Origin: a virus
Lineage: Duplodnaviria; Heunggongvirae; Uroviricota; Caudoviricetes
Reading direction: 5' to 3' (one strand)
Virus record (IMG/VR): IMGVR_UViG_2579778606_000002
Location: 1-64,000 of that record
DNA length: 64,000 bases
The notes beneath the pieces are model-generated. The model did not search any database, had not been told where the DNA came from, and saw only the letters and a list, made by a program, of their open reading frames with translations. Made by a program: the position numbers and the translations under genes. This document shows, one piece after another, positions 7,777 through 55,581 of this stretch; position 1 is the first letter of the stretch, and the number at the start of each line of letters is the position of its first letter.

Positions 7777-8805
7777 TTATGAATCCATCAGGCGACTATT
7801 TGCACCAACGGATGCCCCGCTACGGCGCAAATATCGCATAAGTGTTTCGGGCTTTTTCCATGTGCCTTCCTGCATGATCTCGACCATTGACACCTGTTTC
7901 TCAGCCATATCAATTGCCGCACCAACACGCGCACTATGGCCTGTCCACGTCCGGTATCTTCCCTTGTTCGGCGTGGCATCTCGTTTGTTCAGCAACCCCC
8001 AGGCATCGCTGAATATTTTCTCCATTGCAGGTGCAGTAAGGGGCGTTGTCGTGATTCTGGCCTTATTACTGCGGTGTATTGGCGGGAATAGCACCGCGTC
8101 CGGATGTTCTCGAAGTCCGGACACCTCCAGCCAGTCGTTCAGTACGGCGGTAGTGTAACGAGAAAGCACCTTATCAAGTCCGGCGGCGGTCGTGATGGTC
8201 TTCGTGTGTGAAATATGCAGCGTTACAGTGTCACCTCTTTGGTCCAGATCTCCGACACGGATGCGCGAGATTTCTGACATACGCATCAGGGTATTGTATG
8301 CCACGAAGAGAAACGCCCGATTGCGCAGGTCCACCAGCCGCTCGGAACGGGACAGCAACACGTCGAGCAATTTCAGATCATCCCACCGCAACGGTATAGC
8401 CTGGCCTGTTCGCTCGCCTTTTTCCGTTGCCGCTTCGCGCCGGATGCGCCGCATGGCCAGAGACACACTTTTATCGTCCGACAGCGGCGGGAGGCCACAT
8501 TGCGAAAGCAGCATGTTAAGCATGGCATAGTGCTTATCAATGGTGGTCGAAGCCAGATCGGCCTCATGCAACTGGAGAAGATACTCGCGGGCCATTTCCG
8601 GCGTAATCGGGAACCAGGGGCGCTGGCGCGAGTTACACCACCGCGCCCAGGAATGAAACACCAGACGGAGATCACGAAGTGTATTTGGGGCATAAGCTCC
8701 CTGGTCGTTCATGAACTGCATAAAGTTTTTTGCAGCTTCCTGGTATTCGGTGCCAATATCGCGCAGAAAACCACCAGAACCGCCGGAGATAACTAGTTCA
8801 CCCAT
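7777..8805 (-). CDS. dre: Cre-family tyrosine site-specific recombinase (Dre-like)
   Basis: 342 aa; collinear with Cre (…WFP..PE..R.YLL.L....LA..TI..H...LNML...SGLP.PSD...VSL.MRRIR…HSARVGAA.DMA…) and near-identical to what I recall of D6 Dre; cognate rox site 150 bp upstream. Confidence 0.85.
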   Translation of the reverse strand: MGELVISGGSGGFLRDIGTEYQEAAKNFMQFMNDQGAYAPNTLRDLRLVFHSWARWCNSRQRPWFPITPEMAREYLLQLHEADLASTTIDKHYAMLNMLLSQCGLPPLSDDKSVSLAMRRIRREAATEKGERTGQAIPLRWDDLKLLDVLLSRSERLVDLRNRAFLFVAYNTLMRMSEISRIRVGDLDQRGDTVTLHISHTKTITTAAGLDKVLSRYTTAVLNDWLEVSGLREHPDAVLFPPIHRSNKARITTTPLTAPAMEKIFSDAWGLLNKRDATPNKGRYRTWTGHSARVGAAIDMAEKQVSMVEIMQEGTWKKPETLMRYLRRSGASVGANSRLMDS

Positions 8806-8957: not shown

Positions 8958-8989
8958 TAACTTTAAATAATGCCAATTATTTAAAGTTA
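8958..8989. other. rox: rox-type recombination site: 14-bp inverted arms TAACTTTAAATAAT / ATTATTTAAAGTTA around a GCCA spacer
   Basis: Read directly; identical to the 32-bp rox site I recall for Dre; lox-like architecture upstream of the recombinase gene. Confidence 0.8.
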
Positions 8990-9084: not shown

Positions 9085-9158
9085 GGAACAATCAAAAAAA
9101 AGCGGTTTTATCCTTTACTCACCTTGTTATTCAGCATAAATTTGTCACAGGACTTTTA

Positions 9159-9168
9159 TGTTAGAAAA
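9159..9168 (+). promoter_or_regulatory. operator-like motif TGTTAGAAAA (followed by CTAAATC), 19 nt upstream of ATG 9187
   Basis: Exact 10-mer copy overlapping the likely promoter/RBS region. Confidence 0.45.
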
Positions 9169-9186
9169 CTAAATCGAGTAGGAATA

Positions 9187-10224
9187 ATGAGTAAGAAGTC
9201 GATCGAGAATGAGTACAAACGGTTCCTGCAAACCGCTGAACGGTGGAAAGAGCTGGTGGTCGCAAACTCTGTTTTCCATGATACCAGTTACGTTGGCGAG
9301 GAATTTCGCCATGTTGCATTAACACATGATCCGGCTGTATTAGAAGAAGCTGAAAAATGCATAGCCGAATGGAAAGCCTTTGTTGATCTGTGTCGCAAGG
9401 ATGATGACAAAGCCTCAAACATTGTTGAGTCGGTTTATTTACCGATCCCATTCATTGTTGAGGATACTAATCAGAGTACGCATATCGTTATGCAAAGCGC
9501 AACCACAACGAGAACATTTACGCGCGAAGACCTGCTGAAAAAATACGATAAAACTATAAAGAAAAGCATGAAAAACAGGATCTTTTCACAGGTTGTCGGT
9601 GCGCTTGAAGAAGAACGCAGATTCTTCGCCGCAGAACGTGAGGGCGAGGTATACCGCGCAAGAAAAGAAGGTTATACCGATGTGGTGATTACCACCAATA
9701 TCGAGGGCAACAATGGACTTTCACGCTTCAGAGTGGGTACGCACGGTGCGCTGATCTTTGCAAAAAAAGCAAACACAGAGATTCCCGTTGTTAACAACGT
9801 TGGTGAGCGCCGCACCCTTACCATTTACACTGGCATTAAACCGCTTCCGTGCGGACTTCTCGGCGAATTTGACCTTTATCGGGTTCGTGACCTGGAAAAG
9901 CAGCAGCCAAGCTATGTCGTGAAGTCATATATCCTGAGAAACATTGATATCCGCAATCAGAGTTTAAAAAACAAATCAGAGAAAATGCTGTCCGAAGCCG
10001 ATCCAGCCATACACCAGATCGTTAGCCGGAAAATTCAAGAAGCTAAAGATGCAATGGCAAGGCTGGATAAAATGGACCTGGAACTACTGGAAGTTATGAT
10101 TGCCTCCGGCGATGACCTGACAGGCATCCGCCTTACTGAAGCCAGGAAAAAATACGGTAAAAGCGTTGAAGAACGCTATGGGTACACATTCACACAAACG
10201 ATGTACGCGGCAAAACTCTGGTAA
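9187..10224 (+). CDS. hypothetical 345-aa protein, AT-rich gene adjacent to rox; possible repressor-position or accessory gene
   Basis: ATG at 9187 with AGGAA upstream (ORF track start 9124 is TTG); lower GC than flanks; flanked upstream by two operator-like motifs. Confidence 0.45.
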   Translation: MSKKSIENEYKRFLQTAERWKELVVANSVFHDTSYVGEEFRHVALTHDPAVLEEAEKCIAEWKAFVDLCRKDDDKASNIVESVYLPIPFIVEDTNQSTHIVMQSATTTRTFTREDLLKKYDKTIKKSMKNRIFSQVVGALEEERRFFAAEREGEVYRARKEGYTDVVITTNIEGNNGLSRFRVGTHGALIFAKKANTEIPVVNNVGERRTLTIYTGIKPLPCGLLGEFDLYRVRDLEKQQPSYVVKSYILRNIDIRNQSLKNKSEKMLSEADPAIHQIVSRKIQEAKDAMARLDKMDLELLEVMIASGDDLTGIRLTEARKKYGKSVEERYGYTFTQTMYAAKLW

Positions 10225-10261: not shown

Positions 10262-11770
10262 TTAAATGTCAATATCAGGAATATCCACTTCTGCCAACAC
10301 CTGATCGCGGAATGTTGCTAGTTCTGCGCCAATGTCTTCATTAGCAGGCACGTAATCCACCAGCATAGTGAAGCAGTAGGTATCCCATCTGTCCGGCGAC
10401 TTGATGTTTAACTTCTGCCGCATGTGCTCCTTGCGCATCATCGCCACCTTCCCTTCTTCGTTAAGCATATACGGGATTTTTGATGCCTGATCGGCAGTTT
10501 TGGGGTCACTATCGATACGCATACGCCCTGATTTAATGGCATCCCCTGCCATAATATTGGCGTAAGCACGCTGATTGACAAAGCGTTCTCTGTCTCTTAG
10601 CGCAAACATAGGTTTACCCCAACGGATGCGAACGGGATTAGCACCACGGCGGACAAGCTGCGCACACGTATCTGAACCAAAGCCATCAGCATCCACAGCA
10701 ATGGTGATGTTCGGGTATTTATCAGGAGTGCATTCGTTATAGATAAAGTCGGCAAAAGCCAACGGGTCCATAGTGCCTGGCATCTCCAGTATCTTAAAGT
10801 TCACAACACGTCGTTTCTCACGATAACCGGATACTTTGCATATATTGAGCACCGATTTGTCGCGACCATTACCGACGTCAGCGGTCGCTACCCAGCCCCA
10901 ATCTTTCTCCAGCAACACTTTACGCCGTGCGGCGCGGTCGCACTCATCACGACCAAGCAAATACCCGTTAATTGCACGCGGGAACTGGCCCAGCACCTTA
11001 ACCATGTACTCCAGCGAATCCCTGCCGCCGTACTCCAGCAATTTCTCACGAATAAAGCTCGGTTCAACGAATGGAGATTCTTCAGAGTTAAGGACTATTG
11101 CCGTCCAGACTCCTTCCGGATTGCCTTCTGCCTTTGCCCTTGAATGGTGGGATTCATAAAAGTAACCGCTTGGACGCGTAGGCTGGGAAAGCATGAGCAT
11201 ACGGTTATCTTTCTGCGTTAACGCCCCCGTCATGACGTTAATCGCCTTATCTGATATGCCCGATGCTTCATCAAGGATTAGCAGTAAATGCTCCGCGTGC
11301 TCCCCCGCCAGTGCCTCTTCGTTACCGAGTCGATAACCTTTACAGAGCACTTCCCATATCCCTTTACGGGAACGCTCATAAAACATGGTGTCAGACAGGA
11401 CAAAATAGGTCTGTAACCAGCCGTGGCGCTTAACAGCATTCGCCCAAAACTGTTTCACGTATTTGAATACGCCTGTTTTTACCTGGCCTATTTTGTTCGC
11501 AACAATAATGACGCGGGCGTCGGGGAACAGGATCATAAAAATTAGTAGCAACATCGCGGTAAGGGACGACTTACCCGTTCCGTGTCCGGACGTAACGGTC
11601 GTCCTGCTCCCCGTCTCCTGCACTGACTGAATGATCTGCTGCTGCTGGTGGGAGGGGAACATCCCAAAAATATCGACAACCGCCTGGGTAAAGTTGTATC
11701 GATACCTGATAACCATATCGCGCCAACGTGGATCACTGGTGACGCACTTAATCTTACGACCACCAGCCAT
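10262..11770 (-). CDS. pacB: terminase large subunit (PacB-like)
   Basis: 502 aa, Walker A GHGTGKS, nuclease-like C-terminal half; immediately downstream of pacA-like gene as in P1. Confidence 0.75.
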   Translation of the reverse strand: MAGGRKIKCVTSDPRWRDMVIRYRYNFTQAVVDIFGMFPSHQQQQIIQSVQETGSRTTVTSGHGTGKSSLTAMLLLIFMILFPDARVIIVANKIGQVKTGVFKYVKQFWANAVKRHGWLQTYFVLSDTMFYERSRKGIWEVLCKGYRLGNEEALAGEHAEHLLLILDEASGISDKAINVMTGALTQKDNRMLMLSQPTRPSGYFYESHHSRAKAEGNPEGVWTAIVLNSEESPFVEPSFIREKLLEYGGRDSLEYMVKVLGQFPRAINGYLLGRDECDRAARRKVLLEKDWGWVATADVGNGRDKSVLNICKVSGYREKRRVVNFKILEMPGTMDPLAFADFIYNECTPDKYPNITIAVDADGFGSDTCAQLVRRGANPVRIRWGKPMFALRDRERFVNQRAYANIMAGDAIKSGRMRIDSDPKTADQASKIPYMLNEEGKVAMMRKEHMRQKLNIKSPDRWDTYCFTMLVDYVPANEDIGAELATFRDQVLAEVDIPDIDI

Positions 11771-13134
11771 TAGTCATCCTCCGGCTGGTCTATCGCAATC
11801 TCGTCATCTACAGCATCAAAACCGGTATCCCCCGCGTCATAATCACCGTAGATATCAGCCGTGGCGGAAGGGTCTATATTCAGGTCTTCATCATTGGCCT
11901 CAAATTCACCGGCTTTACGTTCTCCGTTCCGGTCGTAATCCCCCATCCCAAGCCTATCAACGATTTTCGCTACTTCAGCCCGGCGTTGTGCAAGCCATTG
12001 TGGGAGTCCAGCTTGTTGCTCGGCAAACTGCTTCGCCTCTTTATCCAGTTGCTCATCATCAACATCGTTAACGTCAGAAACCGGAGGCTCCAGAAGTGAG
12101 ATCGCTTTTGCCGCTCGTGCCGCCAGGATAGCCGGGACACTGACGCCCTGCCGCTCGATATATTCAGCAACGCCTATATCGTCCAGCTCCTCGCGCTCAC
12201 GCATACGTATAGCGGCGGCGATAACTCTGGCGGCGCGTGCGTCAGCGCCAATGCGATACTCAATCTCTTTGCCACGCTGCTCGGCTTGCAGGCGAGTAAT
12301 CGCCAGTTTTTCTCTGGCCTCAGCCTCTCTGAATGCCTGCTGGCGCGCGCCCTGCGCAAGTTTTTCATCCCCCTGGCGTAGCTTCTGCTCGGTCTGGTAG
12401 ATGGCAGCCAACCTACTGATAAAGTCATTCATGTAGTAGGCCGCATCGCTTATTAGGCCGAGAAGACGCTGCCCTGGGTGCATTCCCTCTGGCTGTGTAT
12501 CGCCGAGGGCGTCAATCTCTTCCTGTAGTCGTTCCGCTTCCTGGTCAACGATGGCCTGATACTGAATTGCTCGTTCCTGCGCCATCTGTATCGCAAGTCG
12601 TAAATGTTCAGTCGCGCCGTTCTTCATCATCTCACGGGCGACGTTGGTGGCAGGCAAAGTGGCGCTTTGAGCTGATGAGTCAGGGATCATTTGCAATGAT
12701 CCCTTGTTTCGTTGGGCTTTTTCGCTGCTTTTAGGGATCATTTCCCCCATTTCATCACAAAATGATCCCCTTACATCCTTGTGTATCTTATTGTTATTAC
12801 TTGGCTTTTCTTTGTGATCCGCATTTTGTTTTTGCGGCATGGCGCGGAATCGTCCACCAGCTAACGATTTGTCAGTTTTTGTAAATTCTGTGCTTTTATC
12901 AGCCTTTTTTTGCTCTTTTTTTGGGCTTGTGGCGCTACTTTTTGCGCGCTGTTTTGTACTTTTCCCGGCAGCCTTAGCTTTCGCTTTAACCTCGTTTTTT
13001 TTCATATTGAGATGCTTTCTGGCGGTGTTAAAGCTGAGGTCATGCTGCTCGCAATATTCTTTTATGGTGATCCCGGTTTCTTCTCTTAACTCCAGGAACT
13101 TAGCTCGATGCGCTTCCCAGTTAATTAACGTCAT
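11770..13134 (-). CDS. pacA: terminase small subunit / pac-recognition protein (PacA-like)
   Basis: 454 aa, N-terminal HTH-like region, Lys-rich linker, acidic C-terminus; contains GATC-rich pac-like cluster near 5' end. Confidence 0.6.
   Translation of the reverse strand: MTLINWEAHRAKFLELREETGITIKEYCEQHDLSFNTARKHLNMKKNEVKAKAKAAGKSTKQRAKSSATSPKKEQKKADKSTEFTKTDKSLAGGRFRAMPQKQNADHKEKPSNNNKIHKDVRGSFCDEMGEMIPKSSEKAQRNKGSLQMIPDSSAQSATLPATNVAREMMKNGATEHLRLAIQMAQERAIQYQAIVDQEAERLQEEIDALGDTQPEGMHPGQRLLGLISDAAYYMNDFISRLAAIYQTEQKLRQGDEKLAQGARQQAFREAEAREKLAITRLQAEQRGKEIEYRIGADARAARVIAAAIRMREREELDDIGVAEYIERQGVSVPAILAARAAKAISLLEPPVSDVNDVDDEQLDKEAKQFAEQQAGLPQWLAQRRAEVAKIVDRLGMGDYDRNGERKAGEFEANDEDLNIDPSATADIYGDYDAGDTGFDAVDDEIAIDQPEDD
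12685..12829. other. pac: candidate pac site: five GATC-containing hexamer elements (TGATC[C/A]) within 145 bp inside 5' part of pacA
   Basis: GATC at 12685, 12698, 12736, 12764, 12826 embedded in repeated GGGATCA / TGATCC elements; P1 pac is a Dam-methylated hexamer cluster inside pacA. Confidence 0.45.
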
Positions 13135-13523
13135 AGGGAAGCCTCACGTTTTTTCACAGCGGCGTTCCATAGCTGGTTAGTCATCGCCACCAACTGACGC
13201 TGCTCCTTTCGTAATTGAGCTTCTATCTTTCGGTTGGTGTTTTTCACCAACAGCCGACCGAATTCAGGAGTGCGCCCGCGCACCTTGAACTGGTATCCAT
13301 TCAGGCCATGTAGCCAATATTTCCGGGGGTATACGCGGTCGTCTATTTCGCAAATGGCACGACTGGAACGAACAAAAAAACGTATGATGTTATTTACGTT
13401 TACGCGCGACACATGAAGGTGAGGATATTGTGCTTTTGCACGGCTGGTGATTTCGGTGACCGTCAGATAGCAGTCAGCCCTGATCATGATATCCGCTATT
13501 TCGGCGCTACTGATTTGCTCCAT
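13131..13523 (-). CDS. lpa: possible late promoter activator (Lpa-like), 130 aa
   Basis: Position immediately upstream of pacA as in P1; operator-like motif just upstream; assignment by synteny only. Confidence 0.35.
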   Translation of the reverse strand: MEQISSAEIADIMIRADCYLTVTEITSRAKAQYPHLHVSRVNVNNIIRFFVRSSRAICEIDDRVYPRKYWLHGLNGYQFKVRGRTPEFGRLLVKNTNRKIEAQLRKEQRQLVAMTNQLWNAAVKKREASL

Positions 13524-13630: not shown

Positions 13631-14014
13631 CTACCAGCGGGATAAACGAACAACATGCTTAACTTTTGCCTCCCACTTCCCTTTATGTTTGTTGATCACC
13701 GCCTGCGCCATCTTCAGACTGGCTTCAAAATCGGCTTTTCGACCACTATTGCCCACCAGCAACGCTCCGTCTATTTCGGGTAAGCATAAGTAATCCTGCT
13801 CGACGGTAAGCGGCATTGATGATGTAACCTGGCAGGCTTTCCATCTGAAGCGTATGCGCACACTCCTGACTGACATCACGACATAACCTGATATTGTGCT
13901 CTTGTGTCCGGCGTCTGTGCGTGTAGCCTTGCATGATGTTATCTTGCAGGTGATGATGTCCCAACCAATGTGCATCGCATCCTCAATGCGTAATTTAGTA
14001 GCCTCGTACATCAA
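13631..14014 (-). CDS. hypothetical protein, 127 aa
   Basis: ORF in minus-strand operon. Confidence 0.4.
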   Translation of the reverse strand: MMYEATKLRIEDAMHIGWDIITCKITSCKATRTDAGHKSTISGYVVMSVRSVRIRFRWKACQVTSSMPLTVEQDYLCLPEIDGALLVGNSGRKADFEASLKMAQAVINKHKGKWEAKVKHVVRLSRW

Positions 14015-14586
14015 AAAACCTCCCAGTCAGTAGCGATAATATCGACACCAGTTGCAAACCAGTCTGTCTGCGCCTGTAAATCCCCATTCATCATTACCAG
14101 GCGAGGCATAACCATCACATCACAACCTTCAACAATATCGAATGCCTCTTCCGGCAGGAATTCGACGAGCTTTTCTTTGCTGCCAACACTGCCACGGAGC
14201 ATCGATATATAGCTCCCTTTAGGCCATGATGTTCGCCGGGCATCAAGCCCCTTCATCATCCAGTAAAAGGCCGATGAGAACGGGATGTTCTTTTTGGCGA
14301 TGAGCACGTTATTCGCTTCTGTGTACTTCAGGAACTTAACTAACCTTACCATCGACTCGGATAACGCAATGTACGGCTCATGATTGATTGCTGACACGCT
14401 TACGCCGTGCAGTCCAACACTTACCACTGTCATATCACCGTTCTGTGCGGTTTCGATGTTGACGCCTTTACGAACTAACGCTGCATAAAGCTCCTCGCGC
14501 TTTTGCGTCCAGCATTCTCGTCGCCCTATAAAGTCACTCAAAACGAGATCATCTTCTGAATACGCGTTATCGTTCGCCGTTAACAT
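14011..14586 (-). CDS. protein with C-terminal DUF2829-like domain
   Basis: FYWMMKGLDARRTSWPKGSYI ... DWFATGVDIIATDWEVF resembles DUF2829 signature (weaker than 5707..6369). Confidence 0.45.
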   Translation of the reverse strand: MLTANDNAYSEDDLVLSDFIGRRECWTQKREELYAALVRKGVNIETAQNGDMTVVSVGLHGVSVSAINHEPYIALSESMVRLVKFLKYTEANNVLIAKKNIPFSSAFYWMMKGLDARRTSWPKGSYISMLRGSVGSKEKLVEFLPEEAFDIVEGCDVMVMPRLVMMNGDLQAQTDWFATGVDIIATDWEVF

Positions 14587-20675: not shown

Positions 20676-23600
20676 TTAGGCCGCATCGGCGATTATTTTA
20701 CGCAGTTCATCTACCGAGTAACGCGTAGATACCATCCATGCAGGACGGTCAAAGTTCACATCAGCAACCGGGTTTGCTTCAAAATTCCAGAAACGCCCGC
20801 CAATCTTCTTAATCGCGTCTTTGGCGTTCCGTATTGTCGAGGAACCAGGTTGGTCGGCAATGAGATAAACCGCACCGACGTCCTCGCTGACACTCCACCA
20901 GCGCCCGCGAACACGCGCCTTAGCGCGAATCGGCTTATCATTAACCACAATGATATAGTCATCATTCGCCGCTTCATCAGCTCTGGCTTCAGCCACTGCC
21001 GCCTGCTCTTCTCTTTTGCTTTCAGCCTGTTCAAGCCTTTCCGCGATCTCTGATTCGGTGGCCCCGCCGTTTTTCAGCGATACATAGTCTTGCCACGTTG
21101 CTGATTTGAGCGCATCCGGCAACTCATTCACATAGTCACCGTCTTTCAACTCACGGGCGCGGCGGGTAGCCATTTCTACCAGGCGATTAACAGAAACAGC
21201 ATCAGCAAAATCGTCCTTACTAATGTGTTTTTCATCAAATGCATTGATGACAGCCCCCACCTTAATCCACTGTGCTGCCGGTGATTCCAGGGGGTTATCA
21301 GCCTTAACAATGGCGAGTTTCGCTCCATCTACCCCATTATTCGCCAGCTGTTCCAATGCCGCCCATCCATCTGCATCACTGAGTGATTTATATTGCTCAA
21401 ACAATGCATCGCGCCAGGCCACCAGCGCAGAACGTGTTTTTTCGATCTTCGCCTTAATTTTCGCGATCTTGACCTGATTAAACATCCGTTCAATATCATC
21501 GATATTGCTAAAGGCTTTCATCCTGCCCTGGAATAAACGGTATGCCAGCACGGTCCTCCAGAATGATTCCAGACCTTCTCCGGACGGTTTGCGGAACAAG
21601 CTAAGAATATCTTCAGAAGTGACTTTATTAAGCGAACGACCTGACAGACCACGCCCAGCCATCCAGTTTTCGAACTCCTGGGCAACATCATCCATCGTTG
21701 CCTGTGCGCCCCATGCCTGCATTCCCTGGGTGTAATCATACCCATACAATGCCTGGAGGAATCCCTCGCCGTCCACGATATTCAGCGGGTTATCACTGGC
21801 TTGTATTTTTGCCACTTCACGCTTCAGCGCCTCGTCGTTGCCATCAGGATATATCCATCGCTCAGGTGCTATATCCGATGCTCGCCCGATTTTTTGGCCT
21901 ATCACGCCATCATAGGCCGATGACAGCGCGATCTGACCATCATCTGTGCGATATGCCCAGTATTTAATAGCTGACCCACCGCCCCATGCATTACCAGGTT
22001 TACCAGCAATAACATTCATTACCCCATTGCGAATAGCATCATAGAACTGATCGCGAGTAAGTATTGTTGATAGCTGGTGGCACTGAACACCACGCGCAGC
22101 CGTTGCGCGCGATTCAGCTACCCCCTCTTCAAAAGTTACCGCCTCAATCACAGAGTCAAACGGCAATGTAACGATTGACCCCGGTGCTCGAGCGTAACGA
22201 CTTGCTCTATCCAGCCAGGCGATACGGCAGAGGTATTGTGCTTTTTCACCGTCAATTTTTTCCACCCGGACAATCGCTGTTGTTTCGCGATCATCAATGA
22301 CTGCACGGTAATAACTACCTTTATGCAACAGGATATTCTTGTCAGTGCGCATATATTCCTGTGGGTTCTGAATAACATCGATACTGATATCCAGCACACC
22401 AGACTTAATAGCGCGCTCCACATCACCACGAGAGCGTTTCATTATGGTATCCGCGTCTTTTGCCCTGGTGATCGCAAACCGCAGCACCCGCGCACGTTTT
22501 CTGTAGCTACTCAACTGCTCAAGCGCGTATTTTTGCCCATTCCTGTTCGTACCCGCTTTTATCAGGTCGTCAAGATTGCGCTGGTAATACTCTATCTGTT
22601 CCATCGCGCTTTTCAGTTCTGTCTCCATCATGCCGATATCTTTTCCGGCGGCGTTTGCCGCTTTCAGGTAGATATCGAGAGCATTGTTGGCCTCGCGCTG
22701 TGCTTTCAGTTTCAGACGTTCTTCACGCTCTTGCGCCTGGCGAGCCATGATTGCGCGGCGTTCTTCCGGGTTTGCCGCCAGCATAATGGCGCGTTCATCA
22801 GCATCATCCGCATCACCATTGGCGATCTCTGACATGTCGGATGTCATCACCATCTTGATCCAGTCTTTCTTACGTTTCAGCGTATCCAGACGGAAGTCGT
22901 CGAATGTGCCTTTGCCACAATAGTAGTGAACATTGACCTTTTCTTGCGGTGAACCTACGCGCGCACCGCGCCCATTTCGTTGGTCGATACTGGCTGGTGT
23001 CCAGGGTAGTGTCAGGTGGTGGATATCGGTTGTCCCGATGTGCAGGTTAATACCTACTTCAGCCTTCTTGTTACAGATTATGATGCGCGTGCGACCTTCG
23101 TTATAGTCGGCGGCAATACCTTCCATGCCCTCAAGGCCAGCATCATTTTTAGCGGAGAGATAATCCTCATATTGGGCAAGTTTGCTGTAGTAGGTTTCCC
23201 ATGCCCCTTCTTTGTATTCACCGTTTTTGTTTGGAGTAGGTTCGGTCGGCTTATTCACCTTCTTCAGCTTGATGCCACCAGCCTGGCTAACTGTCGTCGC
23301 ATTGATAATGCCAATCTCCTGCTCCGGCATTTGCAGTGCACTGGCGATAATACGGCGCAGCTTCTGGTGCTGGGCTTTTTCATCAATAAAGACGATCTGC
23401 TTACCGTTCTTCAGACCTTCACGAAGATTTTCGATCAGCGCGGCATACTTCGGCGGGATGGGGTGCGATACCTGCTGCATATCAATGCCGGCAGCCGCAA
23501 TGGCCTTCAGTATTTCAGCTTCCAGTTCAATGCTGGCACGTATTTCAACATGCGTCGGATGTTCACTAAAAGCGGTCTTCACTACCTTGCTGGTACGCGT

Positions 23601-26600
23601 ACTGACCAGCCCGCCAGCGCCGTCTTCCTCGGCCTCATCAACATCATCTGCCACTTTACCGCCAGCTACTTTTGGCAAGGCATCAGCAATAGCTTTTACC
23701 TGGTCTGCAAGCTCAACGGGGAACTGGAATGTAATCGCACTGGCATACAGATCCGGGTCTATAGCAACCTTATCCATGTCACGGATGATGGAGAAGATGA
23801 AATCATCCGGTTTGTCGTTAGTGATATGCCCGTTTTCATCGACTGTCAGCTCATCATTGCGACTTAACTCCTGAGCACGCTTACGAAGCTCTTCATAAGC
23901 AGTCTCCTGCTCCCCTGTCATCGGGATCTGCAAGGTGTTCTCGATGATGTCGGGAATTTTAACCGTCGCTCCGACATCTGCAGCAGTCTTCAGAGTGGTC
24001 CACCGATGGAAAATACCACGCAGGCCGTCAAGGTTCTGGAAGCCCACCAGCCCCTGCTTCTCTTCCACTTCCCCGGAAATTTTCTGGACCTGAACTGTGG
24101 CTGTTTTGCCAAACACACGAACGAAATCATCAGGCGTAATGATGCCCATGCGCATCCACTCTTCCTGCGGAATGACAGTAGACAGCATGTTGAAGGCATC
24201 AATCGGACTGTTCACCAGCGGAGTTGCCGTCAGCATGACTACACCACGCCCGTTGTTGCGTTTCATCATGTACGCAGCTTTTACAGCCATGTCGCGGGCC
24301 ATCTTGGATACTGCCGGGTTAGGCAAATATGCCAGTTGTCCCGCTTCACGCCCGGCATTAAAGGAGTTGCGGTAGTTATGCCCCTCGTCGGCAATCACGC
24401 TATCGAAGTTCATATCCTCAAAGTACGGGATATTCTGCTTCTTCGTTGTACCGGTATTCGCGGCCTGATCCTTAATCTTGTTCTTCTTCTGCGCATCACG
24501 GTGTTTACCGGACGCCAGGTCAAGACGCCCCATTTCCACAGCATTAAAGACAGCTTGCTGTGAGTTCTCCTCGATGGTTTTTTCTCGTAGCGGGATAGAC
24601 GCGAATTGTTCTTTTGTCATGATGACCGTTCGCCAATTTGACGACGGGATCATGTTCATACGCTGAACGATAACGGCGCTGGAGGACTCTTTCACAACAT
24701 TTCTGGTAAGAGGCTGCCCGTTACTGTCGAGGCGTGGTTCGCCATTTTCATCAAGCACCGGCGCGGTCAGAATATTTCCGCTGTCATCACGAACTTCATC
24801 CAAACCGATAAACATCATATTGGCGAAGGCATCAGCACTGTAGAAACTCTGTGCCTCGTGATACCAGTTCTGATAAACCGCCTTCGGAACAACAATACAC
24901 GTGCGTTTAGTGCGACCTGTTTCGAAGTTATACGCCTCAAGCGCAAGCGCGGTCGTGGTTTTACCCAGCCCGGTACCAAATCCCATGATGCCACGCCCAT
25001 CTTCTGACAAGCGCCGAACTTCTTCATTCTGATAAGTCAGAGGAATGCGCTTTCCACTAATCCCTTCCAGGCCAAGCGGTGCGTCAGAATGTGTGAACGG
25101 AATGAAACCATTGAATGCGTCGTTATAGTCACGGGCTATCTGATCCGCCTGCGGGTGGGTGCGTAACCAGTCGTTAAAGCTAACTTCCAGTTGAGCAATT
25201 TTATCCAGGTACTCGTTAGCGTTCTGCCCACGCGGTTTAACACCGTTCAGGTAGTTTTCTAACTGGTTCAGGAAGCCGTCTTTATTGTTGGCCTTCTTGA
25301 ACTCATTCCCGTTTTTGCCGTTTACGGTTCGTAGCTGATAGCCGGTAAATACCCCGTCCTTACCTTCGTAATCGTCCGGAGATACCAGAATGCCATCGAC
25401 GACCTTCAGATCAGGTTCAGTGTACTTAAACTCGTCATAGCCCTGCTCTGCCAGGAACTCTTTTATCAAGCGGCGATCCAGCCAGCGGGCATTCAGATTA
25501 ACGGTGACTTTATTTAGTGGCGTGAAAATACGTTTCTCTTCGATTTTCGCCAACTGACGCTCAAAGTTCGCTTTCTGCTCACCTGTTGACGCATCACGCC
25601 AGCCCATCAGCAATGCTGTTTTGGTTGCAATATCGCCGCTGGTGGCGCGGTCCATCGGCAGCAGGCAGCCATACCCATCAATAGCGATATCATCAAATTT
25701 CGCCAAGTATTCAAGGGCCGCGTCGTCGTCCTCTGGCAGTTCACCAGCAAACGCCTCACGAAAGTCTCCCAGCGTTATAGGATTAAGGGCTACATCACTG
25801 AAAAGATGTGCTATCACTTGTTCAGGACGTGTAAAGTCAATACCGGCAGCACCATCTGTTACATCAAGTCGCCCTGCCAGAAGGTCAGAAGTGGAACCAT
25901 CCTGTTTCACATTGCCAGTGAACGTCATCCAGTTTTTAGCGCCAGCTTCAGCAAGCCCATTCAGCTTAATAGCGTGCGGTGGTCCATACTTCGCAACTTC
26001 TGCTGCCGCCAGGCGGGATGCATCTGCCAGTTTGTCATCAACGTTCACACCCAGGTTACGCAAATCAAGTGCCTTGTTGATCAACTGACCTATCAGCGCA
26101 CCGCGCATAACGCGCTCCCTGTCTTTTTCTCGCTGCTTGCCAGCAAAGCGAATCATTGCTGCCACTTCATCACTGACAACCGATGGATAGTCGGACGCGA
26201 TCGCCGATATCTGGTCCCATGACAAAGCCAGAATCCCGTTTGTTGACTGGAACGCGATCTGCAGATCGCCAAACGTCGAAACACCATATCGACTTACATC
26301 AAGTACGGAGGATTTGGTTGTCGCATCTTTAACCCATTGCAGGCCATCAAACTCGTGCCAGATGCCACCTACAAGGCGCTTGTCTCCTACTTTGGCGCCC
26401 TGCCATGCCTGAGTAGTTACGCCAAGCAAATCCCAATTAATGCGGCTTTCAAAGCGGCGCGATAGAGCGGTTTTCATCGACTCATTGGATACACGACCGT
26501 CCTTTTTCACCACCAGAGTATTGCGGAAGCTGGTACGTTCCATGTCGCCGTAAACAAATCGTTTCCCTTCGGTTGTAAACCATTTTCCTTTGAGGAAGGT

Positions 26601-27527
26601 ATCCCAAAGGACGTTTGCCGATTTGAGTGTTGAATCATCCGTGTCGGGGATCATCTCCTGGAAGGTTTCCGGGTGTTTACGCAATACCCATACGTCCACC
26701 ACGGTATCTGTACCGGATTCGCTGAACGTACCAGAAGGCATACGATGCGCGCCCAAAAATTCCGCTTTACGGCTGACTTTATCGCGCAATTTTTTGTATT
26801 TCGTACCATCGGTCATGCCATTCGGCACCACCAATACAATTAGTCCACCAGGCTTAACCTTGTCGATCGTGCGCAGCACAAAATAATTGCCAACGTTCTT
26901 CTCGTTTGCATATACCGGATCAAGCCCGGCGACGCCGGAACGCCCTTCGCCAAACGGTACGTTACCAACTGCGTGGTCATACATTGCATCTTTCGCCGCC
27001 AGCGCCTCAAACGCCCCGATATTCACATCATCTTCCGGGTGCAAAAGCTGGTTTATTCGACCGGAGATCGGAGACAGTTCGGCGCTGGTCATTATCATGC
27101 CCTGCCGTTTTGTCTCCTGGAAAATACCTGTGCCTGCTGACGGTTCCAGTATGTGACCGCTATCAATACCGTAGTCGCCGAAGAGATCCCATATACCTTC
27201 TGCCATAAACTGTGGCGTGTAGTATTCGTATTGGCTGCCCTCACCATCTGTCAGGCCGCCTTCACCGGTATACCCGGCAAGAATCTGACGCTGTTCGTCA
27301 GTTAATTTCGCTCCATCGAAGCCGGGCGGAAGGGAATTAAGAAGATCTACTGCGGCGTTGTTTGCTGTCCGGCGTGTTTTCTGAATACTGACGCCATCGA
27401 CTTTCTTAACGCCAAAGGTCACTACAGCTCGCGGTTTATGCAACCGACTAACAATTTCAATCAGCGCCCCAATGCTGGTGGCCTGGCTAATTGAATCAAT
27501 TATTTTGTCCAAAGGAAGCCCCCTCAA
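20676..27527 (-). CDS. darB: DarB-like antirestriction protein: N6-adenine methyltransferase plus SF2 helicase fusion
   Basis: 2283 aa; MTase motif I LEPSAGTGIF and motif IV-like GNVPFG; helicase Walker A GFGTGLGKTTT and DEGH box; size matches P1 DarB (about 2255 aa); start codon at 27527 is TTG. Confidence 0.75.
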   Translation of the reverse strand: MRGLPLDKIIDSISQATSIGALIEIVSRLHKPRAVVTFGVKKVDGVSIQKTRRTANNAAVDLLNSLPPGFDGAKLTDEQRQILAGYTGEGGLTDGEGSQYEYYTPQFMAEGIWDLFGDYGIDSGHILEPSAGTGIFQETKRQGMIMTSAELSPISGRINQLLHPEDDVNIGAFEALAAKDAMYDHAVGNVPFGEGRSGVAGLDPVYANEKNVGNYFVLRTIDKVKPGGLIVLVVPNGMTDGTKYKKLRDKVSRKAEFLGAHRMPSGTFSESGTDTVVDVWVLRKHPETFQEMIPDTDDSTLKSANVLWDTFLKGKWFTTEGKRFVYGDMERTSFRNTLVVKKDGRVSNESMKTALSRRFESRINWDLLGVTTQAWQGAKVGDKRLVGGIWHEFDGLQWVKDATTKSSVLDVSRYGVSTFGDLQIAFQSTNGILALSWDQISAIASDYPSVVSDEVAAMIRFAGKQREKDRERVMRGALIGQLINKALDLRNLGVNVDDKLADASRLAAAEVAKYGPPHAIKLNGLAEAGAKNWMTFTGNVKQDGSTSDLLAGRLDVTDGAAGIDFTRPEQVIAHLFSDVALNPITLGDFREAFAGELPEDDDAALEYLAKFDDIAIDGYGCLLPMDRATSGDIATKTALLMGWRDASTGEQKANFERQLAKIEEKRIFTPLNKVTVNLNARWLDRRLIKEFLAEQGYDEFKYTEPDLKVVDGILVSPDDYEGKDGVFTGYQLRTVNGKNGNEFKKANNKDGFLNQLENYLNGVKPRGQNANEYLDKIAQLEVSFNDWLRTHPQADQIARDYNDAFNGFIPFTHSDAPLGLEGISGKRIPLTYQNEEVRRLSEDGRGIMGFGTGLGKTTTALALEAYNFETGRTKRTCIVVPKAVYQNWYHEAQSFYSADAFANMMFIGLDEVRDDSGNILTAPVLDENGEPRLDSNGQPLTRNVVKESSSAVIVQRMNMIPSSNWRTVIMTKEQFASIPLREKTIEENSQQAVFNAVEMGRLDLASGKHRDAQKKNKIKDQAANTGTTKKQNIPYFEDMNFDSVIADEGHNYRNSFNAGREAGQLAYLPNPAVSKMARDMAVKAAYMMKRNNGRGVVMLTATPLVNSPIDAFNMLSTVIPQEEWMRMGIITPDDFVRVFGKTATVQVQKISGEVEEKQGLVGFQNLDGLRGIFHRWTTLKTAADVGATVKIPDIIENTLQIPMTGEQETAYEELRKRAQELSRNDELTVDENGHITNDKPDDFIFSIIRDMDKVAIDPDLYASAITFQFPVELADQVKAIADALPKVAGGKVADDVDEAEEDGAGGLVSTRTSKVVKTAFSEHPTHVEIRASIELEAEILKAIAAAGIDMQQVSHPIPPKYAALIENLREGLKNGKQIVFIDEKAQHQKLRRIIASALQMPEQEIGIINATTVSQAGGIKLKKVNKPTEPTPNKNGEYKEGAWETYYSKLAQYEDYLSAKNDAGLEGMEGIAADYNEGRTRIIICNKKAEVGINLHIGTTDIHHLTLPWTPASIDQRNGRGARVGSPQEKVNVHYYCGKGTFDDFRLDTLKRKKDWIKMVMTSDMSEIANGDADDADERAIMLAANPEERRAIMARQAQEREERLKLKAQREANNALDIYLKAANAAGKDIGMMETELKSAMEQIEYYQRNLDDLIKAGTNRNGQKYALEQLSSYRKRARVLRFAITRAKDADTIMKRSRGDVERAIKSGVLDISIDVIQNPQEYMRTDKNILLHKGSYYRAVIDDRETTAIVRVEKIDGEKAQYLCRIAWLDRASRYARAPGSIVTLPFDSVIEAVTFEEGVAESRATAARGVQCHQLSTILTRDQFYDAIRNGVMNVIAGKPGNAWGGGSAIKYWAYRTDDGQIALSSAYDGVIGQKIGRASDIAPERWIYPDGNDEALKREVAKIQASDNPLNIVDGEGFLQALYGYDYTQGMQAWGAQATMDDVAQEFENWMAGRGLSGRSLNKVTSEDILSLFRKPSGEGLESFWRTVLAYRLFQGRMKAFSNIDDIERMFNQVKIAKIKAKIEKTRSALVAWRDALFEQYKSLSDADGWAALEQLANNGVDGAKLAIVKADNPLESPAAQWIKVGAVINAFDEKHISKDDFADAVSVNRLVEMATRRARELKDGDYVNELPDALKSATWQDYVSLKNGGATESEIAERLEQAESKREEQAAVAEARADEAANDDYIIVVNDKPIRAKARVRGRWWSVSEDVGAVYLIADQPGSSTIRNAKDAIKKIGGRFWNFEANPVADVNFDRPAWMVSTRYSVDELRKIIADAA

Positions 27528-30376: not shown

Positions 30377-31339
30377 TCATCCCCGAAAGCCCTCCGGAAT
30401 TGACCAGTCTTCCCGGTCAAATTCAGACCGATAGCCACGCTGTTTCATCAGGTCAAAGGCTTCACCAATGGTTGCACACCCCTGGGAGCCAGAATAATCC
30501 ATTGAGAAATCCAGGGCACTGGATTGTTTAGGCTTATTCACTGCTGTAGCGGCACTACGTATCCATGCAAATTTTTTTGCCAGCTTTTCAGCGGTACGAT
30601 ACAGAGCCTGCCGTTTTGCGTGCCCCTCATCTGAACGACGCTTTGCAGCTCTCGCTTTTGCCGCCGCCAGGCAGTGGTTGGTATGTTCTTCCCTGATTAC
30701 TGGTTTTTTATCCAGACCCCCATTATCCGCTTGAGAACTATCTGCTGGTGAAGCCTTTGGCTGAACCGCGCATGATCTTTCTCTTCTTTTGGCTATAGAG
30801 TGACTCTTATTTTCTATTGGCTGTTCATTTTGAACATGGGGGGACTTGTTCAATTTGAACAGGGGGTTCCCAGTTTCAAAAAAATAACGAACCTTTGAAA
30901 TCAACTGCTTAACCAGTTTTGTGGCGTTGGCAAATTTGATGCCCTGCTTACTCCCTATCTCCATTGCTACATGAATGAAGTGGAGAAATTGTGTTGTAAA
31001 CCGGTACACGTTACACACCTGAGCATTGTTATTCGCTACCTGATGCTGCTTAACAAGCATTCCGCACTTCGTCGCTTCGGCAAATGCCCGGCGCACAGTA
31101 GAAATACTGCGTCCTGTAATCTCGGACATATCCGCATATGAGCGACGGATCATGTATTCATCGGTAGCTCCTGCCAGGTTGGCGAACTCGGCAATAATGG
31201 CGCTATGTGAAGGGGAAAGAAAACCGCTATGACGAGCAAAAAAACTCAACTGATGACCTTTGATTTTTTTGTGGTATTCAGTGTTGTTTTTATACTCAGA
31301 AGTGTTGAAAGTAACTGAAACTGAATTTAAAATACTCAC
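30377..31339 (-). CDS. HTH DNA-binding protein, 320 aa (function unknown; replication or regulatory)
   Basis: HTH-like MSEITGRSISTVRRAFAEATKCGML; basic Lys/Arg/Ala-rich middle region. Confidence 0.5.
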   Translation of the reverse strand: MSILNSVSVTFNTSEYKNNTEYHKKIKGHQLSFFARHSGFLSPSHSAIIAEFANLAGATDEYMIRRSYADMSEITGRSISTVRRAFAEATKCGMLVKQHQVANNNAQVCNVYRFTTQFLHFIHVAMEIGSKQGIKFANATKLVKQLISKVRYFFETGNPLFKLNKSPHVQNEQPIENKSHSIAKRRERSCAVQPKASPADSSQADNGGLDKKPVIREEHTNHCLAAAKARAAKRRSDEGHAKRQALYRTAEKLAKKFAWIRSAATAVNKPKQSSALDFSMDYSGSQGCATIGEAFDLMKQRGYRSEFDREDWSIPEGFRG

Positions 31340-31511
31340 CAGATAGTTCCGTGAAAAATCTATCTACCGTATAAATCTATGCCAGTGGATTTATACACCC
31401 AAAAGCCGCTACTCAGCGGCTTTTGCTTTTTTTGGCAGTCGCTACCGGAGCAGTGACCGCGATCCTACTCGATCACGTGCCGTCGGATCAACAGTGTATA
31501 AAAACACACTG

Positions 31512-31538: not shown

Positions 31539-32537
31539 TCACATCCTCTTAGACACAAAGATCAGCGGAGTCACCGTCTTGTTCTCTTTCACCGGTATTT
31601 CTTGTTGTTTATTGGCTGATATTGGCAGACCATAAGTGGCATTAGCCCCCAGGGATTCAAGCATCGCTGCGACAATGCGTGCATCATCCTCTGACTGCAT
31701 ACGGCAGAGCGCCCGGCGCTGTTCTGCGCTGATAAAAACAGGCATTTCCTGGATAGCATCACGCAAAATACGGCGGCATTTCTTCGCGTTCTCCCCCTGG
31801 CTTTCCATCATCGCGGCCTGGTCGCGTAGTTTGTCGCGAAGCTGCATATTTTCCACTTCAAGATGTATCAGTTCCGACTCCAGAACTTCACGTTGTGCTG
31901 ATTCGAATATGGCTTGCTGACTCTTCATTGCTGAAAAGTGGTGAACCAGATCCGTAGCAGCATTATCGGTAAAACCTTGTTCGATAAGTGCCGCATGAAT
32001 CGCCGCGTCGCGTTCTTCTGCTGATTCAAGCATCAGGCTTTTCTTGTCGAGGCTGATATAGTTAGGCACAGTTACGTAATCAAAACCGTGAAAAGACTTT
32101 ACCAGGGATACAGAGTAATCTGGACCAGATGTAGCCCATGACCAACCACCTGCGCCAGAATTAATCATACCCTGAACAATACGTCCGGTGTCCGTATCCA
32201 GTATTTCCTGTGTATGGGTAACAATGCCGTTGTCGTCAATTGAAATGTCGATAGTCCTGTTTGACGGCACGTTCTCCAATACAACAGGCTTCCCATCTAC
32301 CATCACAACAGAGACTTCCGGCAAGTCCAGGCTTTTCGTTTTGTTATAGTGCATCGCCCGGCGACCATGACCGTAATAACCATACATCTCACCCAGTGCG
32401 ATACGCTCTTTTGTTTCTGGCGAGTTGAATGTGTCTCGTACCGACTGGATAACGTAATTGCGATTGTTCTGAGGTGTGTGTTTGCGGATTTTCTCTACCA
32501 GGGAGAAGCGATCCGTAACGGTATTCAGTGATTGCAT
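31539..32537 (-). CDS. hypothetical head-morphogenesis protein (possibly Pro-like protease/scaffold), 332 aa
   Basis: Follows a portal-sized gene; central coiled-coil segment; assignment by size and order only. Confidence 0.35.
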   Translation of the reverse strand: MQSLNTVTDRFSLVEKIRKHTPQNNRNYVIQSVRDTFNSPETKERIALGEMYGYYGHGRRAMHYNKTKSLDLPEVSVVMVDGKPVVLENVPSNRTIDISIDDNGIVTHTQEILDTDTGRIVQGMINSGAGGWSWATSGPDYSVSLVKSFHGFDYVTVPNYISLDKKSLMLESAEERDAAIHAALIEQGFTDNAATDLVHHFSAMKSQQAIFESAQREVLESELIHLEVENMQLRDKLRDQAAMMESQGENAKKCRRILRDAIQEMPVFISAEQRRALCRMQSEDDARIVAAMLESLGANATYGLPISANKQQEIPVKENKTVTPLIFVSKRM

Positions 32538-35032: not shown

Positions 35033-35326
35033 TCAATTCACATCAATGTCTTGATATGATTCGCCAGTATCGTCTTCGTCGTCAGGATCTCCTTCCACCT
35101 CTGGCCACTCAACCTCCCAGCCAACAGTTTCCAGGCTCCGCAGAACAAACACCCCATCGGCATGAATGGTATTCACGATCCCCATTGCGGAATTTGTGTT
35201 GATAAAGCGTAAATCTTGCGCAATATTTTCTTCCGAAATATCGCCTTCAAATATACGCAATGTGCCGTCATCAGAGCATTCAACAATCCCTCTAATCCCA
35301 GCGGGACTCACAATGCTATACTTCAT
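35033..35326 (-). CDS. hypothetical acidic protein, 97 aa
   Basis: Last gene of Dar-like operon; acidic C-terminus. Confidence 0.4.
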   Translation of the reverse strand: MKYSIVSPAGIRGIVECSDDGTLRIFEGDISEENIAQDLRFINTNSAMGIVNTIHADGVFVLRSLETVGWEVEWPEVEGDPDDEDDTGESYQDIDVN

Positions 35327-38300: not shown

Positions 38301-38357
38301 AATAACACTGTTAATGTCTGCTGCTTCGGATAGCGCGGAAGTAACTGACTTGTTCAA
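35316..38357 (-). CDS. ddrB: large Dar-cluster protein (DdrB-like) with C-terminal HExxH zinc-metallopeptidase motif
   Basis: 1013 aa; LWHEIGHHIEH about 124 aa from C-terminus (nt approx 35672..35695); position after darA/ddrA-like genes. Confidence 0.5.
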   Translation of the reverse strand: MNKSVTSALSEAADINSVIALVSSLERRETRQGRSSYVVTSKGAEVKTAFKVVDASSLIISNNLDGTINPAFPEELQPRDRTRLSSKLQVNRIASNLRPAQLTDSGMSSHGAPIVGPDNVVESGNGRSMGIWRAYEQGQADEYRQYLIDHAKEFGLNPDDISQMSMPVLVRERLTDVDRAQFARDSNISDLQEMAASEKAYADAQFLTESVMALFNPSDDGNLLARSNDAFIRAFLREIGDTATAGLLTADGRPTKQLIDRIQNAIFAKAYKDERLVRLVAEEPDPEMRNILTALNTAASDFAQMQSLSGDVHHDTVTGLVDGIEQLNGLDKQAIAALQEAINLVREAKDNGQAVEEVIAQRGLFGDSTPEAEALALFIVANNRSAKRMGAAFKKLAQKINDELIHQQQALGDMFGGGDVDLRSILSAVSDEIEAEYGEGKGLNFAMFESVSGDVEPYISKLIADATSVEDLIRIVKASEKIKESAKKIKRNVFLELGFYIRNVTVNEIKAWAKRYGYSNAVLTTMLLSYQRSNFYANALRDAIEKGDEAPSLADERNIDCDIETFCNMSEEGVPAEQFIRVLHNAAKHIPDDFSIDELRNGCLVWLGNYLKSPASIAEKTALRFRKEMNKAGSAEEMVRIIQNTLKLFKKSLHNINDIMAAGREITASVGVSSELTAEEIADAYIETLVRLKEIVELAEHSSYYGIKERVDFTIEQINKVRSNKEKLTDYLAEVLHQNDHGIGYELKKMLVFNLDIPEDLQAELYEIASLTRGQKAYPNALENVVHKKVRAAFDMILESSNVSHDQSKEWSRGIAISDEAEQLSGHDNETFSRKAYSIRETIEKAYIISGGTLSTLKNINHKNNVRAFASRNGNITIDANSDHERVLWHEIGHHIEHSNPHLLERAKAFIKSKTNGKVFYHNIGSRGSAEYLVRTDLSHGYMSKIYMENTVSSVSGRFISKPPALSNCRATEIFSMALQMYADPEQATNSVLNNDGVLEFFLGCMKELQNEV

Positions 38358-38450
38358 AATACACTCCCCTTACATAGAAAGCAGGAAGTGTAAAAAGTGT
38401 GTGATTTATGGACTTACAGGAAAGTGAAAGGGGCATTTCAGCCCCTTTGA

Positions 38451-38819
38451 TTACCCTGCATAACCGTTGGCTTTCACCCAGCTTATGGTCTGCTCTTTAG
38501 CCTGTTCCAACGTAAGGAACTCGCCTACATAGTTTGAGATCCCACGTAGCGCATCAATAAATTCCATTTGCGTGGACTTTGTGAATGCACCTCCAAGGAA
38601 GTCTGTCACTATCTTAGGAATGTCACCTGCAACAGTATCTGGCTGCGCCTGCGGATCCGATACTGATTGGGCCGCAGCCCCAAGCCCCAGTTTAAGCATC
38701 ACATCAACAATCTGCTTACCAATTGAGACGCGTTGCAATACTGGCGCGGTTTTCTGCGCCTGCATTAAATCTGATAGCTCTTTACCCAATTTCAGACGGT
38801 CTAAAACAGAGATAGTCAT
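38451..38819 (-). CDS. ddrA: small Dar-cluster protein (DdrA-like), 122 aa
   Basis: Position between darA-like and ddrB-like genes. Confidence 0.35.
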   Translation of the reverse strand: MTISVLDRLKLGKELSDLMQAQKTAPVLQRVSIGKQIVDVMLKLGLGAAAQSVSDPQAQPDTVAGDIPKIVTDFLGGAFTKSTQMEFIDALRGISNYVGEFLTLEQAKEQTISWVKANGYAG

Positions 38820-55345: not shown

Positions 55346-55360
55346 AGAAGATCCCGGATC
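55305..55360. repeat. five GATC-containing heptamer repeats (AGATCCA/AGATCCC/GGATCGC), Dam-methylation cluster of replication origin
   Basis: GATC at 55305, 55318, 55339, 55350, 55357. Confidence 0.6.
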
Positions 55361-55397
55361 GCTGCGAGCCGCGCCATCACTGGCCTAAATGGCGATC

Positions 55398-55502
55398 AAC
55401 ATTGACTATGTGCGATTTAATGTTGACTATGTGCGATTTAATATTGACTGTACGCGATTTAATGTTGACTATATGCGATATAAACATTGACTGTATGCGA
55501 TA
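55398..55502 (+). repeat. five tandem ~21-bp iterons (consensus AATGTTGACTATGTGCGATTT), incC/oriR-like
   Basis: Direct repeats read from sequence, immediately upstream of repA. Confidence 0.8.
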
Positions 55503-55581
55503 ATTCTCTCAGCCGTCAGACGGCTGTGGATAAGTATCTTTCATTTGGCTATAAAGCCCCGTCAATCAAGGAAATAACAGG

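Follow-up and report, generated by a model that had tools for sequence, protein, structure and literature searches.

The DNA analysed here, hereafter the window, comprises the 64,000 nucleotides (nt) at positions 1 to 64,000 of the IMG/VR virus record IMGVR_UViG_2579778606_000002 (Caudoviricetes), and our subject is a cluster of five Dam methylation sites (GATC) inside its pacA gene, a candidate packaging (pac) site. The genes of the locus, the elements of the candidate site and a second GATC-rich region of the window are listed in Table 1. Pfam gave no family for PacA or PacB and PHROGs were used instead; a sequence search of the PDB with PacA returned no match. At the amino acid level, PacB is 92% identical to its counterpart in phage D6 and 56% identical to that of P1 over 488 residues, and PacA is 74% identical to D6 PacA and 21% identical to P1 PacA (E 2e-8, pairwise). 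The PacA protein is built of a P1-PacA-like N-terminal domain, which is the region most similar to P1 PacA, a hypervariable K/S-rich linker (residues 45-155) and a conserved C-terminal part, and it is the linker-coding stretch that bears the candidate site. The two genes are adjacent and homologous to the P1 pair, which makes this a terminase locus of the PacA/PacB (P1-supercluster) type.

The surroundings of the two genes are also those of P1. The order lpa-pacA-pacB-c1-rox-dre in the window is the P1 order lpa-pacA-pacB-c1-lox-cre, so that the synteny of the locus (lpa, pacA, pacB, c1, recombination site, recombinase) is preserved; the D6 map was compared as well and provided the assignment of c1, for which no Pfam family was found. 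The rox site sits between dre and c1, about 3.8 kilobases (kb) from the candidate pac site in the direction pacA to pacB to c1. This placement mirrors that of lox in P1, where pac and lox are about 4.0 kb apart. The right half of rox is annotated in the D6 record, and the sequence of the window agrees with it. One difference concerns the start of pacA. P1 has a promoter, LPpac, whereas in the window the stop codon of lpa overlaps the start codon of pacA (ATGA, 13131-13134) and leaves no intergenic room for a P1-like LPpac, so that co-transcription and translational coupling of the two genes are probable.

By sequence comparison, the neighbourhood of pacA is that of a D6-like plasmid prophage. 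Over the pacA region, the E. coli plasmid NZ_AP027414 is 99.1% identical to the window and six further Escherichia plasmids of about 90 kb each are 97-98% identical, whereas phage D6 and 108 more D6-like plasmids from Escherichia, Salmonella and Shigella are only 78% identical. The search recovered 115 D6-like plasmid records. The variant carried by the window itself was found in 17 of 5,426 complete E. coli genomes, and was plasmid-borne every time. In one 97%-identical relative (NZ_CP069647, 571-1930), pacA is annotated as two coding sequences; in its alignment, single bases are missing from runs of A immediately 5′ of the GATC cluster, and the split gene is either a pseudogene or the product of homopolymer sequencing errors.

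Table 1. Coordinates of the terminase locus, the candidate pac region and the P1-type replicon in the window.
Feature	Position	Strand	Details
lpa, late promoter activator	13131-13523	-	PF25716, E 3.7e-50
pacA, small terminase (pacase A subunit)	11770-13134	-	454 amino acids, 1365 nt; phrog_1711 terminase, E 9e-168
pacB, large terminase (pacase B subunit)	10262-11770	-	502 amino acids; phrog_2 terminase large subunit
c1	9124-10224	+	assigned from position in D6 map
rox, 32-bp target of the Dre recombinase	8958-8989	+	exact 32-mer match
dre	7777-8805	-	tyrosine recombinase domain
Candidate pac recognition region	12682-12822	-	pacA nt 313-453; five GATC elements and conserved AT-rich block
Element 1	12815-12821	-	coding strand CGGATCA; Asp-His
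Conserved AT-rich block	12781-12800	-	between elements 1 and 2; coding strand GTAATAACAATAAGATACAC
Element 2	12760-12769	-	coding strand GGGATCATTT (+ strand AAATGATCCC); Gly-Ser-Phe
Element 3	12733-12743	-	coding strand AAATGATCCCT; Met-Ile-Pro
Element 4	12695-12704	-	coding strand AGGGATCATT; Gly-Ser-Leu
Element 5	12682-12691	-	coding strand AATGATCCCT; Met-Ile-Pro
Isolated sixth copy of the core	13068-13074	-	pacA nt 61-67; coding strand GGGATCA; in N-terminal-domain coding region
DnaA box of P1-type plasmid replicon (55291-56466)	55291-55299		TTATCCACA
Replicon GATC sites	55305, 55318, 55339, 55350, 55357; 55394		first five in (A)GATCC repeats, one more at 55394; 6 in 145 bp
Five iterons	55400-55505		about 19 bp each
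Second DnaA box	about 55527-55535		
repA	55582-56466		78% nucleotide identity to P1 repA

A preliminary description of the window, made from its sequence, had proposed that five GATC sites of the TGATC(C/A) type within 145 base pairs (bp) near the 5′ end of pacA form a pac site, and that the rest of the gene has no comparable density. Our counts confirm the cluster and its isolation within the gene. The five sites are found at 12685, 12698, 12736, 12764 and 12816, that is, in 135 bp (about 37 per kb) and within nt 316-450 of the 1365 nt of pacA, the remainder of which has two GATC only (12100 and 13069). The hexamers are narrower than proposed: all five are TGATCC (at 12697, 12763 and 12815 on the plus strand, and at 12684 and 12735 on the minus strand, as GGATCA), and neither TGATCA nor TGATCG is present among them. 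The comparison with the whole window is more nuanced. It contains 236 GATC (3.7 per kb; 239.6 ± 15.9 in dinucleotide shuffles), so that the cluster is about ten times as dense as the mean, but 33% of random placements over the 64 kb produce a 145-bp stretch with at least five GATC, and a denser cluster exists at 55305-55394.

The bare count is hence unremarkable, and the raw scan statistic (P ~0.33) was not used as evidence. It is also what a chance cluster devoid of function has in its favour. When the scan is performed on longer words, the picture changes: 5 of the 44 TGATCC/GGATCA hexamers of the window fall within 139 bp (scan P ~1e-4), and, for the exact 9-mer AATGATCCC, four of the five copies found on both strands of the 64 kb lie within 87 bp (scan P ~5e-8). 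These extended-motif statistics, together with the invariance across lineages and the recurrence in the whole family described below, make chance scarcely credible as an explanation. Furthermore, synonymous-codon shuffles of pacA yield 1.78 ± 1.0 GATC between nt 151 and 480, where five are observed (P = 0.003). The rest of pacA is GATC-depleted by the same measure, with two sites observed and 5.9 expected, and the trend is the same in 12 of 14 PacA lineages (defined below), suggesting that stray Dam sites close to pac are selected against.

The elements are arranged in a 1+4 layout. On the coding strand, element 1 is followed after 45 nt by GGGATCATTT (element 2), after a further 16 nt by AAATGATCCC (element 3), after 28 nt by AGGGATCATT (element 4) and, beyond the trinucleotide gca, by AATGATCCCT (element 5). 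The last four are thus AATGATCCC repeats of 9-10 bp in alternating orientation that form two inverted pairs: elements 2 and 3 are a 10-bp inverted repeat with arms 16 nt apart, and elements 4 and 5 a perfect 23-bp palindrome, with 10-bp arms and a 3-nt centre. The largest internal gap, of 52 bp, separates elements 1 and 2 and houses the AT-rich block, a candidate bend and/or cleavage zone in which a match to the IHF (integration host factor) consensus with two mismatches, TATCTTATTGTTA, is present on the plus strand (12784-12796). Upstream in the gene, the isolated GGGATCA (GATC at nt 63) is kept in every D6-type pacA examined; it may represent a remote sixth element or be kept by protein constraint only. 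Inverted 8-mer repeats that join the flanks of elements 1 and 2 were also considered; they are not conserved in D6 and we regard them as chance.

Conservation among D6-type lineages sets the elements apart from their surroundings. A first alignment compared the window with D6, three plasmids of the D6 clade and two close relatives. In it the five elements stand out as invariant amid a divergent stretch of pacA, and TAATAACAA and AGATA of the AT-rich block are invariant too. A column test was performed on four lineages that are 71-76% identical in pacA: the window, a 97% relative (L015), D6, and L029, whose pacA has 71% nucleotide identity. All 20 GATC columns are invariant, as opposed to 79 of the 191 other columns (Fisher P = 9e-8). 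At third codon positions the values are 7 of 7 inside GATC and 17 of 48 outside. Element 1 shows no variation in L029 or in the window and D6 clades, the GATC of element 2 is invariant in the lineage alignment save in one sequence (L057), and element 3 provides ten consecutive invariant columns in this alignment and an invariant run of nine columns across 23 D6-type sequences. The nearest outgroup, L031 (PacB 83% identical), keeps equivalents of elements 2 to 5 and a block related to the AT-rich one. In phage D6 itself (MF356679 / AY753669), where nucleotide identity is 78%, the same five GATC occupy identical positions in pacA (nt 316, 368, 396, 434 and 447) with the same pattern of orientations; elements 2 and 4 have other flanks there (AGATCATT and GGGATCTT), which makes the palindrome, perfect in the window, an imperfect one. 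Neither D6 record has an annotated pac feature, and the full-text literature searched, which did not extend to the main D6 papers, contained no description of a D6-type pac site.

Invariance of this kind could be a by-product of constraint on the protein, if the peptide motifs D-H, G-S and M-I-P of PacA merely happened to be encoded by GATC-containing words. Indeed, the residues of the linker that are conserved between lineages are exactly and solely those encoded by the elements, and the elements of some lineages encode repeats in the peptide, as in L038, where D-H recurs with a 12-nt period. But one and the same DNA word, occurring in both orientations and in all three frames, encodes unrelated peptides, namely Asp-His in element 1, Gly-Ser in elements 2 and 4 and Met-Ile-Pro in elements 3 and 5, which argues that the constraint is on the DNA and not on the peptide. 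The remaining linker varies freely (36-43% protein identity between lineages, versus 77-89% in the flanking domains), the synonymous positions within GATC are all invariant, unlike most of those outside, and shuffles that preserve the protein yield far fewer GATC. Protein constraint is therefore a very improbable origin for the cluster.

We then examined the family at large. A PacB alignment search gave 80 IMG/VR loci, 80 metagenome loci and one locus in a Serratia genome, with PacB identities of 56-100%; the Serratia locus was the single one obtained from the PacB scan of representative genomes. The pacA genes upstream of pacB in the IMG/VR and Serratia loci, plus those of the window, D6 and P1, represent 14 PacA lineages with less than 80% amino acid identity to one another. 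Our results show that a GATC cluster at about nt 150-480 of pacA is present in 14 of 14 lineages, and is usually bipartite. The pooled density is 18.4 GATC per kb at nt 151-480, versus 3.5 per kb in the rest of pacA and 3-5 per kb in the flanks, and the 85 GATC pooled from nt 151-480 compare with 43.4 after synonymous shuffling. For P1, which served as a positive control, the annotated cleavage sites (nt 276-285) and the IHF site fall between the two parts of the cluster, at nt 195-229 and nt 325-348. The number of elements on the left and on the right varies among lineages, from 4+3(+1) in P1 to 6-7+2 in the L038 group (with a period of 12 bp), 5+3 in the Serratia locus (L009), 3+5 in L031, 5+1 in L059, 2+2 in L033 and L060, and 1+4 in the window, D6 and L029. 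The words around GATC vary as well: lineages on the P1 side have (T)GATCA(C), and those on the D6 side (window, D6, L029, L031 and L059) have GGGATCAT/ATGATCCC(C) in both orientations. The two branches of the family are thus distinguished by the sequence that flanks the core.

The pac site of P1, annotated in NC_005856, is the natural reference for these data. It was described as 161 bp inside pacA with seven TGATCA/G hexamers, bound by the PacA/PacB pacase together with IHF and HU and cut in its centre; adenine methylation was proposed to control cleavage, hemimethylated DNA being bound and full methylation being required for cutting, and synonymous recoding of the hexamers lowered the titre about 9-fold (PMC10028697, and Sternberg and Coulby 1987/1988/1990 and Skorupski et al. 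1992/1994 cited there). The candidate site shares with it the location in the 5′ third of a homologous pacA (nt 316-450 of 1365 in the window, nt 195-348 of 1194 in P1), the multiple short repeats, each with a GATC core, and the neighbourhood, with lpa upstream and pacB, c1 and a Cre/Dre-type recombination site about 4 kb downstream; in both cases, moreover, the part of the protein that hosts the site is poorly conserved and of low complexity. It differs in that the seven palindromic TGATCA/G of P1 are replaced by five TGATCC, extended to an asymmetric 9-mer, and in that four of these form two inverted pairs, one of them a perfect palindrome. Furthermore, P1 has 4+3 elements around a gap of about 95 bp that contains the IHF and cleavage sites, whereas the window has 1+4 and a gap of 52 bp. 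Held against the strict definition of P1 pac, the candidate agrees in its 5′-third location and in having a GATC in each element, and departs from it in the identity and number of the hexamers and in the 4+3 layout. The statement of the preliminary description that this is the arrangement described for P1 pac consequently does not stand, while the proposal of a pac site inside pacA is well supported by the invariant elements, by the presence of a GATC cluster in every PacA/PacB lineage examined, by the terminase genes and by the c1-rox-dre synteny.

More distant packaging systems offer a partial parallel. In P22, Sf6 and SPP1, the pac site also lies inside the small-terminase gene, as the terminase's own recognition site, and packaging is headful and unidirectional. 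To our knowledge, these sites are neither made of Dam-site repeats nor gated by methylation, and the terminases are not homologues of PacA/PacB.

The departure from the layout of P1 and the unremarkable bare count weigh against a pac site of the P1 kind, and so do several further observations. Single elements appear dispensable in nature, as L057 is devoid of GATC 2 and another sequence, L097, of GATC 3. The outgroup L031 lacks element 1 (it has GATTC instead) and has an extra left arm of three elements (nt 157-181) without counterpart in the window. No match to the IHF consensus WATCAANNNNTTR with at most one mismatch was found between 12650 and 12850, and window-wide counts of such matches are those expected by chance; in our reading, the annotated IHF site of P1 also fits this consensus poorly. 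None of the contigs of the 80 metagenome loci, be they D6-type or P1-type, ends at pac. Finally, the window has no recognizable dam gene: the D/NPPY/F/W motif is absent from open reading frames (ORFs) of more than 150 amino acids, a tblastn search with a Dam query gave no match, and Pfam revealed no Dam-type methyltransferase among 24 ORFs of the window. Methylation would therefore have to come from the host or from a part of the element outside the window. As for physical ends of DNA, one of the 80 IMG/VR loci, a D6-clade isolate contig (IMGVR_UViG_2537562191_000021, 1-60), starts right after the GATC of element 1, between GGATC and ATGAAAAT. This might be a DNA end or a coincidence, and we treat it as an anecdote.

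The absence of a dam gene from the window also bears on the role of methylation. The cluster could be a pac recognition site without Dam regulation, GATC being simply the conserved core read by the DNA-binding domains of the PacA family. A core common to all lineages with flanks that differ (TGATCA versus ATGATCCC) is what a conserved recognition helix would give, and the sequence of the helix region is NTARKHL in the window and NTARRYL in P1. Yet methylation of the same cores is reported to control cleavage in P1 (PMC10028697; Sternberg and Coulby cited there). The depletion of GATC elsewhere in pacA relative to synonymous expectation, moreover, fits recognition that depends on methylation. 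Escherichia, Salmonella and Shigella, the hosts in which these elements were found, are Dam-positive. We hence consider a Dam-independent pac site unlikely.

The cluster might alternatively be a Dam/SeqA-responsive regulatory element unrelated to packaging, which would time the expression of pacA and pacB, sequester the region after replication or act as an antisense terminator through the hairpin at 12682-12704. The window itself offers a precedent, as clustered GATC (55305-55394) regulate replication at its P1-type origin, and the 23-bp palindrome followed by a T-rich tail is terminator-like on the plus strand. This origin, oriR (55291-55580), holds the only GATC cluster of the window denser than the candidate pac site and resembles it in having dense GATC in short repeats. 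It differs, however, in being intergenic, in lying beside DnaA boxes, iterons and repA, in consisting of (A)GATCC direct repeats and in its role, which is replication. The function of oriR in P1 depends on Dam methylation. Near 12685-12829 we found no DnaA boxes, iterons or rep gene, all of which are present at 55291-56466; the candidate site is thus not of the Dam-dependent oriR type. Nor is there a promoter-like site in or beside the cluster. The hairpin is lost in D6 (GGGATCTTCAGCAATGATCCC) while the individual elements are kept, and a hairpin or terminator was for this reason rejected as the primary function of the palindrome. Besides, the homologous cluster of P1 is the experimentally defined pac site. 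Taken together, a purely regulatory role is improbable.

Other features of the window were recorded along the way. Three GATC occur within 29 bp at 31461-31489, in the intergenic region between two minus-strand ORFs (30377-31339 and 31539-32537); on the minus strand they directly follow an inverted repeat (acacagtgtgtttttatacactgt). Two minus-strand ORFs contain a Tad2-like (Thoeris anti-defence 2) domain, PF11195 (5707-6369, E 1.6e-22; 14011-14586, E 4.4e-10). Homologues of the P1 anti-restriction (Dar) module are found at 20676-27527 and 35316-41382, and include a 2283-residue SNF2-domain protein, similar to DarB in its size and position, as well as a ParB-domain protein resembling DdrB and two proteins with DarA domains.

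Based on sequence comparison and on the analogy with P1, the cluster is probably the packaging-initiation (pac) recognition site of a D6-like phage-plasmid of the P1 family. We propose with good confidence that the region 12682-12822 is a pac recognition site homologous to P1 pac in position and logic; the two almost certainly descend from a shared ancestor. If it is a pac site, Dam gating is a likely property, since every element has a GATC core, as in P1. The site would be a D6-type variant of the P1-family pac site, with an asymmetric 9-mer, inverted pairs and a 1+4 layout; a site of this kind was itself expected, and no new class of mechanism is opened.

We infer the following sequence of events largely by analogy. 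During late lytic growth, PacA would bind the repeated AATGATCCC-type elements, that is, the two inverted pairs and the single TGATCC located 52 bp upstream, and the inverted pairs may be bound by symmetric dimers or by an oligomeric ring. The AT-rich block, together with the host proteins IHF and HU, would be the candidates for bending the DNA. PacB would then cut nearby, our best guess being between elements 1 and 2 (12770-12815), and headful packaging would proceed toward pacB, c1 and rox, in the direction of decreasing window coordinates. The first headful would carry rox twice, in its terminal redundancy, allowing circularization by Dre. Under gating of the P1 kind, cutting would occur at fully methylated sites, while those that have just been replicated, and are hemimethylated, would resist it; cutting would thereby be limited to one pac per concatemer.

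A broader reading can be offered tentatively, although we think it rather doubtful as a whole. Dam-site clusters in the linker-coding part of pacA, mostly bipartite, may be ancestral and universal in PacA/PacB terminases. The sequences flanking GATC may have co-diverged with PacA, so that the P1 side came to use the palindrome TGATCA and the D6 side the asymmetric AATGATCCC, in inverted pairs, and the site of D6 and the window may be a compact, essentially one-armed version that arose by loss of a left arm of the L031 type. If this were true, the assembly of PacA and the geometry of cleavage would differ from those of P1, and P1-like and D6-like plasmids residing in the same cell would have mutually exclusive packaging specificities.

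Phage-plasmids of the D6 type are frequently found in E. coli, Salmonella and Shigella. Knowledge of the D6 pac site would allow the construction of D6-based phagemids or transduction tools orthogonal to those of P1, as well as the prediction of which DNA is mobilized through pseudo-pac sites with AATGATCCC pairs. For the family, the two branches would provide a natural comparison in which a Dam-gated terminase site shifts in specificity and layout and yet stays within the terminase gene.

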